Source: a virus (lineage: Duplodnaviria; Heunggongvirae; Uroviricota; Caudoviricetes). From it: a stretch of DNA of 42,135 bases. Position numbers and translations under genes: made by a program. Below are positions 1,621 through 3,196 of this stretch, piece by piece. The notes under the pieces are model-generated. The model did not search any database and was not told the DNA's origin. It worked only from the letters and a program-made list of their open reading frames with translations. Position 1 is the stretch's first letter; every line of letters begins with the position of its first letter. The DNA lies in the IMG/VR virus record IMGVR_UViG_2558860274_000001, positions 1 to 42,135 of that record; one strand, given 5' to 3'.

Positions 1621-1917
1621 TTACTTCATCCCGCCAATATTTTCCCACGTCCCGTCAGCACGCAGGATTTGCAGCGGTCTTACCACACACTGTATCTGCT
1701 TTTTATCCGCATCCAGTATCACCACCTGCGTGATTACCCTGTCCTGCTCCGGGATAATGCCATTCTCATCGGACTCCAGAATGTCTGCCGGTCCCAGTCG
1801 CAGCTGTGCTGTAAGTAACTCCCCGTTTTCACGGTCATCATGCTTTCCGCAACCGCACAGACGCTGCATAAGTTTTCTCAAAATATTCATGTCATTCTCC
1901 TGTTCTGCCTGTATCAC
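1621..1917 (-). CDS. Small protein resembling the C-terminal tip module of the adjacent tail fibre (possible alternative tip or assembly protein); start uncertain
   Basis: 98-aa ORF; motif [29 protein letters not shown] parallels [30 protein letters not shown] at the C-terminus of the upstream tail-fibre ORF. Confidence 0.4.
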
Positions 1918-3196
1918 TGCCTACTTCATCCAGCCCCTTAACATCCTGCCACGGCCCGTCACCAAATCTGACCTGCAAATGCTGAAACATCCCCTGAACC
2001 TGTGTGGCATCTTTGGGGTCAAGAAAGGTCAGTCCGGTGATGAGTGCGCCATCTGTATCCGGGAACCAGCCATTGCTGTTTGTCTCAATAATGCTCGCCG
2101 GCCCCAGACGAAAACGGATTTGTGTCTCCCCCGGGTCGCCCTTCGGTCCCTGAGGTCCGGTTGCCCCCACCGGGCCAGCCGCACCTGTTTCTCCTTTCGG
2201 TCCCTGTGGGCCTGCCGCACCGGTATCTCCCTTTGGACCCTGTGGACCTGCATTTCCCGTCAGACCGGTCTCTCCCCGCTCTCCCCTGTCACCTTTCGGC
2301 CCCTGCGGGCCTGCCGGACCAGCATCACCTGCCGGTCCCCGTTCGCCGGTTGCCCCGACAGGGCCGGTGTCACCGCGCTCTCCCTTATCACCCTTCGGCC
2401 CCTGAGGACCCGCGGGCCCCTGTTCCCCCTTTGGCCCGGGAGGTCCCACCACGGTGGGGATTCGGTTTACGGCCTCTTCCGCCGCTATCCTGCTTTGTTC
2501 CGCTGACTGTGCGCTTTCTGCTGACTCCCGGGCTTTTTCTGTTGCGGTCGTTGCATCCCTGGCTGCATTACCGGCTGCACTTTCTGCCGCCTTTCTTGAC
2601 AATTCAGCTTCTGCTGCACTTTGTGATGACTCACTGGCTTTTTGAGCGGCCGCAGAAGCCGAGGACGAGGACGCATCCTCTGACTGCTTTGCTGAGGCTG
2701 CACTTTCTGCCGCCTGCCGGGCTGACTCCGATGCCTCCCCTGCTGAAGTGTCAGCATTTGCAGCGCTCTCTTCTGCCTGACTGGCTGATATGCCGGCATT
2801 CCTCGCTGACGTCTCCGCCTCTCCGGCATTCTTCTTCGCCTCCTCAGCGTGACGCGCCACCTCTTCCACCATCAGTTCAAAACGGCGCAGTGCCTCTGGC
2901 CGGACATCATCCTCCGTCATTGCACCGAGGAAATCATTCAGTGTGCCCGGCTTTGAGTCCTCATATACTGTGATAATCCCGGCGTGTGACGGCGGGAATC
3001 CCTCCACCAACAGACTGACGCTGTACTGACCATACTCGACGTCCATTGTGTAACGCCCGGCTTCATCCGGGTTTTCTGAGGCCACTGTGTTCACCACCAC
3101 CGTGGTGCTGTTGCGCCTGGCCTTTAGCTGAATGGTGCAGTTTTGTATCGGCTTACCTGCGCCATCTTTCAGTACACCTGAAATCCGTACTGCCAT
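1892..3196 (-). CDS. Tail fibre protein with Ala/Ser/Glu-rich segment and collagen-like Gly-X-Y repeat region
   Basis: 434-aa ORF; about 36 consecutive G-X-Y triplets ([29 protein letters not shown]...); position downstream of J and lom. Confidence 0.7.

Follow-up and report, generated by a model that had tools for sequence, protein, structure and literature searches.

The window analyzed here, a 42,135-nucleotide stretch of DNA (positions 1 to 42,135 of IMG/VR record IMGVR_UViG_2558860274_000001), is a lambdoid prophage. At positions 1,621 to 3,196, on the minus strand, it carries a gene for a collagen-containing tail fibre and, directly behind it, a small gene whose product resembles the fibre's own C-terminal tip domain, PfC. 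The pair is, with near certainty, the side tail fibre module of a lambdoid Escherichia coli prophage, in which an EPclA-type fibre is followed by a separately translated paralogue of its tip. The best explanation for the pair as a whole, held at a probability of about one half, is that the small protein acts, without being essential, as an accessory partner of the PfC tip. The observation, like the main interpretation offered in a preliminary description of the region, made from the sequence alone, is already in print, and the small gene is named by PGAP, Pfam, and PHROGs.

Duplication of the fibre tip

According to the preliminary description, a separate open reading frame (ORF) downstream of the fibre gene repeats a motif, LGPA[DS]I[LI]E, from the C-terminus of the fibre. 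Proper alignment bore this out. In a single BLASTP comparison the small ORF and the fibre C-terminus were identical at 24 of 62 residues (39%, E 3e-12), and amino acids (aa) 37-98 of the ORF matched PF06820 (Phage_fiber_C) at E 6.6e-36 and 122.9 bits, against a cut-off of 25. Both stretches fit this profile end to end (positions 1-64 of 64), the motif being the start of a ~64-residue domain common to fibre and small protein. The similarity is genuine homology and no chance motif. Furthermore, homologue searches returned two identity classes relative to the query, 79-100% and 34-40%, with none between, and the sequences form only two clades, small-type and fibre-type, lacking intermediates. The fibre type is marked by the signature ...FGDG.WQD.K.L..VG and a tail beyond it, and in the small type nothing follows the domain. 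When 1.84 billion representative proteins were searched with a profile, there were only 90 matches, nearly all of them Escherichia-type fragments, and no new architecture explaining function; the small-protein family is therefore small.

The ORF as called mechanically is 98 aa long and begins at a GTG at 1917, which is the earliest start codon that its frame offers past the upstream stop and lies nine codons 5' of an ATG at 1890. The true small gene almost certainly starts at that ATG and encodes 89 aa, since this is the form annotated by PGAP/RefSeq (89 aa, 'phage tail fiber C-terminal domain-containing protein'), the profile of PHROG 576 ('tail fiber protein', 89 positions) begins there (ORF residues 10-98 against positions 1-89 of 89, E 3.5e-60), a Shine-Dalgarno sequence precedes it, and the junction is conserved. 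Because the small gene starts at this ATG, the two genes abut without overlapping; the preliminary description was right about a separate ORF at 1621..1917 and wrong about its overlap with the fibre gene. The fibre stop codon, TGA at 1892-1894, is separated from the small-gene ATG by a single base (TGA-C-ATG; coding-strand sequence across the junction, ACAGGAGAATGACATGAAT). The junction CAGGAGAATGACATG is identical in related loci, and TGA-C-ATG is unchanged in every related IMG/VR locus (~75) in which the fibre ORF abuts the small ORF. With the Shine-Dalgarno sequence inside the fibre gene, this layout implies that translation of the two genes is coupled. In most relatives (e.g. L033, L050, L054) the small gene's frame is open for 46 codons 5' of the ATG, overlapping the fibre PfC (135 aa from stop to stop); this upstream extension is probably chance in GC-rich sequence. 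The small gene and its immediate surroundings comprise the following features (pN/pS, ratio of non-synonymous to synonymous polymorphism).

1621..1917, minus strand: mechanical 98-aa ORF, beginning at the first GTG after the stop
1621..1890, minus strand: small gene, 89 aa plus stop, standalone PfC paralogue (ORF, Pfam, PHROG, PGAP)
1624..1809, minus strand: PfC domain of the small protein, aa 28-89 (PF06820, E 6.6e-36; pN/pS 0.054-0.074)
1843..1890, minus strand: N-terminal 16 residues of the small protein, predicted helix plus Gly-Cys-x-Lys motif (AlphaFold2 helix at residues 3-11, low confidence)
1897..1901, minus strand: AGGAG Shine-Dalgarno sequence for the small gene, within the last codons of the fibre gene and six bases 5' of the ATG (sequence)
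1578..1608, no strand assigned: hairpin with U-runs on both strands, likely a bidirectional terminator closing the fibre module (RNA fold -22.7 kcal/mol, z -3.6)

The small protein thus consists of a predicted N-terminal helix with the Cys motif, a variable linker, and the PfC domain. The hairpin lies fifteen bases past the small-gene stop, between the convergent small gene and an effector remnant, and is flanked by A-runs and U-runs. It was revealed by folding and was not listed by a consensus terminator scanner, presumably as the A/T runs lengthen the stem and use up the T tail. Given this terminator 3' of the small gene, the small gene is probably the last of the tail module.

The fibre gene, as the preliminary description held, encodes a 434-aa collagen-repeat tail fibre. 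Its architecture is the one defined as EPclA by Ghosh et al. 2012 (PMC3368898), PfN - PCoil - Col - PfC. The protein belongs with PHROG 366/3279 ('tail fiber protein'), is named 'prophage tail fiber N-terminal domain-containing protein' by PGAP in relatives, and over residues 1-94 matches a solved 'Tail fiber protein' chain (9e7m_Ta, E 9e-50). A low-complexity segment rich in Ala, Ser, and Glu, likewise noted before, was confirmed (44 A, 25 S, and 23 E, together 92 of the 140 residues from 106 to 245); by analogy with the published PCoil it would be the coiled-coil equivalent. The earlier count of about 36 Gly-X-Y triplets proved to be exactly 36, with proline at the X position in 17 of them (regex count), and the run was placed some 20 nucleotides (nt) off, at about 2140..2470 where it occupies 2123..2446.

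1892..3196, minus strand: side tail fibre gene, EPclA-type (PfN - coil - collagen - PfC), 434 aa (ORF and Pfam PF08400, PF01391, PF06820)
2798..3196, minus strand: PfN domain, aa 1-133, tail anchor (PF08400, E 1e-68)
2447..2797, minus strand: Ala/Ser/Glu-rich segment, aa 134-250, putative PCoil region of EPclA (composition)
2123..2446, minus strand: collagen domain, 36 uninterrupted Gly-X-Y triplets, aa 251-358 (regex count; PF01391, E 1e-17)
1928..2119, minus strand: PfC tip domain of the fibre, aa 360-423 (PF06820, E 5.2e-36, profile positions 1-64 of 64)

Recombinant EPclA was shown for ECs2717 to be a dumbbell-shaped trimer by size exclusion chromatography with multi-angle laser light scattering, circular dichroism, and electron microscopy (PMC3368898). 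In that work PCoil was a coiled coil, Col a collagen triple helix melting at 42 °C, and the isolated 7-kDa PfC domain trimerised by itself and re-nucleated the collagen helix. By homology, the window fibre would form a trimeric dumbbell with a collagen triple helix. EPclA (ECs2717, from O157:H7 Sakai prophage Sp14) and the window fibre share the same Pfam families and, with the PCoil assigned by analogy, the same four-part architecture. Their neighbours also match, J and Lom preceding the fibre and an EspF-repeat effector gene lying beyond its other end. Relatives are mostly 437 aa with usually 37 triplets, against 434 aa and 36 triplets in the window, which amounts to no difference in kind.

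Conservation, relatives, and expression of the small gene

Matches to the 1.8-kb fibre region occur in 4,494 of the 5,426 complete E. coli genomes searched, the best at ~95% nucleotide identity, and in 358 phage records, mostly Shiga toxin (Stx)-converting phages. In order to assess selection, 80 IMG/VR loci were collected via the small protein and 80 via the PfN domain of the fibre. In the first set, 80 of 81 copies of the small gene were intact, with pN/pS 0.10 overall and 0.054 in the PfC part, compared with 0.24 for the PfC of the fibre. This first estimate was biased, as its loci had been picked by small-protein similarity; repeating it on the PfN-selected loci left the conclusion unchanged, with a pN/pS of 0.18 for the whole gene, 0.074 for its PfC part, and 0.39 for the first 28 residues. 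In that second set the small gene stood behind all 26 assessable PfC-tipped fibres (22 copies intact, four frameshifted or truncated), and lambda Stf-tipped fibres were followed by Tfa in its place. Across related loci it lay directly 3' of 73 of 75 complete PfC-tipped fibres (69 intact, four disrupted), one fibre being without it and one running off the contig end. About one fifth of the fibre genes are themselves frameshifted in these prophage loci, so that occasional disruption of the small gene represents ordinary prophage decay. The small gene is under strong purifying selection and is no dead remnant. Recurrent frameshift truncations of PfN-type fibre genes were also seen at 236, about 270, and 373 aa in loci L003-L157, many of them in or beside the collagen repeats; these could be prophage decay or assembly or sequencing errors in repeats.

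A divergent version of the pair occurs at L158:110-974 (GCA_008387015.1). Its small-protein homologue (P0164) has 79 aa and is 52% identical to the window protein, keeping the N-terminal pattern M.I..K....L.GC.K with the linker deleted. The P0164 gene overlaps the end of a 212-aa protein by 14 nt and lies behind an AGGAGG. This 212-aa protein is collagen-free and has a PfC tip 40% identical to the window tip, and over residues 1-124 it is similar to tail fibre proteins from phages of Yersinia and Vibrio, with an N-terminus ~50% identical to g27 of Yersinia phage fEV-1. Because this divergent pair carries both paralogues, the tip duplication predates the split between the L158 and window lineages. 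A weak CBM_5_12 match was also noted in the 212-aa protein, NleG and SopA-like effector genes lie near the cassette, and the cassette had no megablast match among the 5,426 complete E. coli genomes.

The combination of fibre and small gene is also found in the short-tailed Stx phages Sp5 and phi24B, behind the podovirus lateral fibre, and a 649-aa fibre locus (L054) has the same junction as the window. Taken together, the gene arrangements suggest that the PfC tip and the small gene travel as a two-gene cassette among unrelated fibre shafts. Two further architectures were observed. In a 565-aa protein (P0180, L159:3505-5202; Logan assembly SRR17035117), collagen repeats come after four PfC-like units in tandem (ILRVRQADGTWKEIPA), so that other phage fibres, too, may contain a PfC-like fold as a repeated module in their interior. 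At L116:5000-6560, a 519-aa PfN fibre with a 45-triplet collagen run ends in a non-PfC C-terminus (LVEGFKTLRHEIKELREK), and no small PfC gene follows it.

Evidence for expression comes from purified phi24B virions, whose proteome is given in the supplement to a cryo-electron microscopy preprint (10.64898/2026.04.10.717836). Two peptides unique to the small protein are recorded, with three peptide-spectrum matches (PSMs) each. The database entries listed for them are 'Fusion_6159_FS1/FS2', the 135-aa frame, and 'gp59_start', and the corresponding protein row bears the label 'Spike or just gp59?'. Hypothetical frameshift fusions of fibre and small protein had been included in the search database by the authors, who used the upstream-extended frame of the small gene for them. 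None of the junction peptides TGEDM..., ENDMN..., and MNILK appears in the examined part of the supplementary data. Counts in the fusion row are above those in the row for gp61 in a single gel band, EA1829, of low molecular weight (25 against 24), a surplus that fits a free small protein.

Role of the small protein

By homology with EPclA, PfN anchors the fibre to the tail, and the coiled coil and the 36-triplet collagen helix would be its shaft. The C-terminal PfC knob would trimerise and nucleate the collagen, folding of the fibre starting at this end and proceeding to the N-terminal one. Under the accessory-partner reading, a late transcript shared with the fibre gene would also yield the small protein, which is probably a PfC-type trimer. 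It may associate with or act on the distal knob of the fibre, while being dispensable, and so could do for this fibre what tfa products do for those of the lambda type.

The same small-protein family, 89 aa and PF06820 only (PHROG 576), occupies the same position behind a PfC-tipped collagen fibre in Sp5 (ORF68) and phi24B ('gp59'). The partner there is a podovirus lateral fibre, whereas in the window it is a PfN-type side fibre of a long-tailed lambdoid prophage. In lambda, tfa lies in the corresponding slot 3' of the side tail fibre gene and is swapped along with the C-terminal end of the fibre. Tfa and the small protein are not related in sequence, the latter being instead a paralogue of the fibre's own tip, and a PfC-type fibre trimerises without the small protein. 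The earlier proposal of an assembly module is therefore plausible by position, but an essential chaperone is not: EPclA trimerises alone, Sp5 ORF68 is listed as non-essential, and there is no Tfa relationship, so the small protein is not a required chaperone.

Several observations weigh against an accessory partner, and binding of the small protein to the fibre is a postulate of that reading. Recombinant EPclA folds as well as trimerises in its absence (PMC3368898), and Mondal et al. 2016 (PMC5155283), who described the 89-aa gene in Stx2 phage Sp5, put ORF68 on their list of late genes that are not essential; besides their work, the literature yielded nothing on the function of the small protein. 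Individual fibre peptides of phi24B reach 47-181 PSMs, against three for each peptide of the small protein, which could therefore be scarce in virions or carried over. The phi24B authors do not list it as structural, nor is gp59 mentioned in their main text (10.64898/2026.04.10.717836). The higher conservation of the small protein, compared with the tip that it would bind, speaks against a co-evolving interface. Its AlphaFold2 monomer was of low confidence (pLDDT 61.6) and gave no fold match, and at E <= 1 its only Pfam match was PF06820, with no NCBIfam match and no similarity to Tfa (Caudo_TAP). A more specific proposal is possible but doubtful: the small protein would be a distinct kind of tail-fibre accessory factor, a Tfa analogue derived from a duplicate of the fibre's trimerisation knob. 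Its trimers would dock on a minority of PfC tips, at low occupancy, and modulate receptor recognition or tip stability, and its gene would move with the tip as a cassette among siphovirus, podovirus, and other scaffolds.

The strongest rival is the 'reservoir' idea of Mondal et al. 2016 (PMC5155283), in which the small gene is an intragenomic spare tip that occasionally replaces the fibre PfC by deletion or recombination. We consider it unlikely as the main role. The preliminary description had suggested a swappable tip and a check for in-frame fusion variants, and one natural in-frame fusion was indeed found (P0063; four member sequences, in two samples). In this protein, on a contig that begins inside the collagen region, collagen (...GERGPA) runs straight into a small-type PfC (DILESDENG...). 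The fusion junction (P0063/L083) is a 10-nt microhomology, GGGACCGGCA on the coding strand, indicating an origin by deletion. The window carries this core within an 11-nt direct repeat:

1785..1795, no strand assigned: copy of the 11-nt direct repeat CTGCCGGTCCC in the small gene, containing the 10-nt core GGGACCGGCA (repeat search, D5)
2329..2339, no strand assigned: partner copy of CTGCCGGTCCC in the collagen region (repeat search)

The two copies are 544 nt apart (3n+1), a spacing at which deletion restores the reading frame. Other relatives include a reciprocal-looking chimera (P0171) and frameshift fusions (P0121, L048, L069). Fusion alleles are rare, however. Among the best-ranked matches in the 5,426 complete E. 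coli genomes no single-piece fusion junction was seen; the search merges two pieces into one place, and these best matches were all two-piece with a 683-nt span, lower-ranked single-piece matches not being strictly excludable. Homologous exchange is not favoured, as the copies are 39% identical in protein and share no DNA repeat >14 nt in the window repeat search. A fusion would also lose about two thirds of the collagen shaft, and a silent spare would not be expected to keep a Shine-Dalgarno sequence, an ATG, 1-nt coupling, a pN/pS of 0.07, and detectable peptides. A swappable tip has thin support, from a rare deletion through a microhomology that the window shares; the two copies have no DNA-level homology that would drive exchange.

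Invertible or alternative tail-fibre tip cassettes are known from Mu Gin and P1 Cin. The window resembles these systems in having a second fibre C-terminal module beside the fibre gene, but its tips lie in the same orientation, the second copy has its own start codon, and neither an invertase nor inverted repeats flanking the tips were found, the only inverted repeat being one of 19 nt at 1973-1991 / 2745-2763. This, too, speaks against a reservoir.

Another alternative, which appears improbable, is that the small protein acts independently of the tip, for instance as a soluble trimer freed at lysis that occupies the fibre receptor on debris or neighbouring cells. Such a free knob would be consistent with the autonomous trimerisation of isolated PfC, with a small PfC far more conserved than the fibre tip, with the low abundance in virions, and with the non-essential status of the gene in Sp5. 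On the other hand, the small protein has no evident signal peptide on inspection, its N-terminus being short and charged, no experimental hint supports such a role, and strict linkage and translational coupling to PfC-tipped fibres across three scaffolds point to a function related to the tip.

A programmed +1 frameshift at the UGA-C stop of the fibre gene, yielding a minor fibre isoform with tandem knobs, is very improbable. A UGA-C stop with an upstream Shine-Dalgarno-like element is the type of +1 site found in prfB. The UGA-C of the fibre, with AGGAG just upstream, superficially recalls that site, a +1 shift there would append the entire small protein in frame, and the phi24B supplement contains a row 'Fusion_6159_FS1 - Spike or just gp59?'. 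As judged from the sequence, though, re-pairing of the P-site GAA with AAU, the +1 codon, is impossible, and the Shine-Dalgarno element abuts the P-site codon, whereas in prfB a spacing of about 3 nt separates the two. A sequence that would promote frameshifting was looked for by Mondal et al. and not found (PMC5155283). The examined phi24B data contain no junction peptide, and their EA1829 surplus fits a free small protein. Furthermore, the L158 junction differs (14-nt overlap) yet retains a Shine-Dalgarno sequence and an ATG, which fits separate initiation.

Finally, a non-functional leftover of an old tip replacement, kept through linkage only and corresponding to the 'remnant of tip exchange' of the preliminary description, would suit the position directly behind the fibre, the non-essential Sp5 homologue, and the four of 26 copies disrupted in prophage loci, where the small gene is hit, per nucleotide, no less often than the fibre gene, but it can be practically set aside: it is largely refuted by the selection (22 of 26 copies intact, pN/pS 0.07-0.18) and virion peptide data, and the start codon, Shine-Dalgarno sequence, and spacing are invariant, while the divergent lineage retains the pair, its 52%-identical orthologue keeping the N-terminal motif.

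Collagen length, neighbouring genes, and significance

Variation in repeat length among relatives, anticipated in the preliminary description, was observed. The longest Gly-X-Y run was counted in 75 complete PfC-tipped PfN fibres and ranged from 15 to 38 triplets, with a mode of 37:

15 triplets: 2 fibres
20 triplets: 1 fibre
26 triplets: 1 fibre
27 triplets: 8 fibres
32 triplets: 1 fibre
36 triplets: 2 fibres
37 triplets: 56 fibres
38 triplets: 4 fibres

One length dominates; that repeat length influences host range, as suggested in the preliminary description, is a conjecture. Fragments with just four triplets also exist (P0147). The collagen DNA contains diverged direct repeats at 99-nt spacing (D1) and a weak 36-nt tandem repeat. 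Length steps of about 10-11 triplets fit these repeats, and collagen length would change through deletions between the diverged repeats.

Just upstream of the fibre lie Lom (3261..3929) and J (3931..7428). Between lom and the fibre start codon, a GC-rich, terminator-like hairpin plus T-run was observed at 3213-3234 on the minus strand, and fibre expression may depend on late antitermination through it. On the far side of the module, an IS2 copy (orfA 1..366, orfB 324..1229) adjoins an ORF at 1214..1495 on the plus strand with two proline-rich repeats of the EspF/TccP type (RPLPDVAQRL.QHLAEHGI...). This ORF looks like what is left of an EspF-repeat (TccP/EspFU-like) effector gene after IS2 took the place of its 5' part. 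Related genomes carry an intact 'EspF repeat-containing protein' gene and espJ at this position.

The window adds no new kind of feature, as the fibre has been characterized and the small tip paralogue has already been annotated and discussed. The 89-aa protein is present in most E. coli genomes, strongly constrained, and detectable in virions. In pathogenic E. coli, fibres of this type belong to prophages that carry Shiga toxin and type III effectors, and fibre tips help set which strains such phages reach. Knowledge of what the small protein does, or of the receptor for the PfC tip, would make it easier to predict the host range of phages that carry Stx and effectors.

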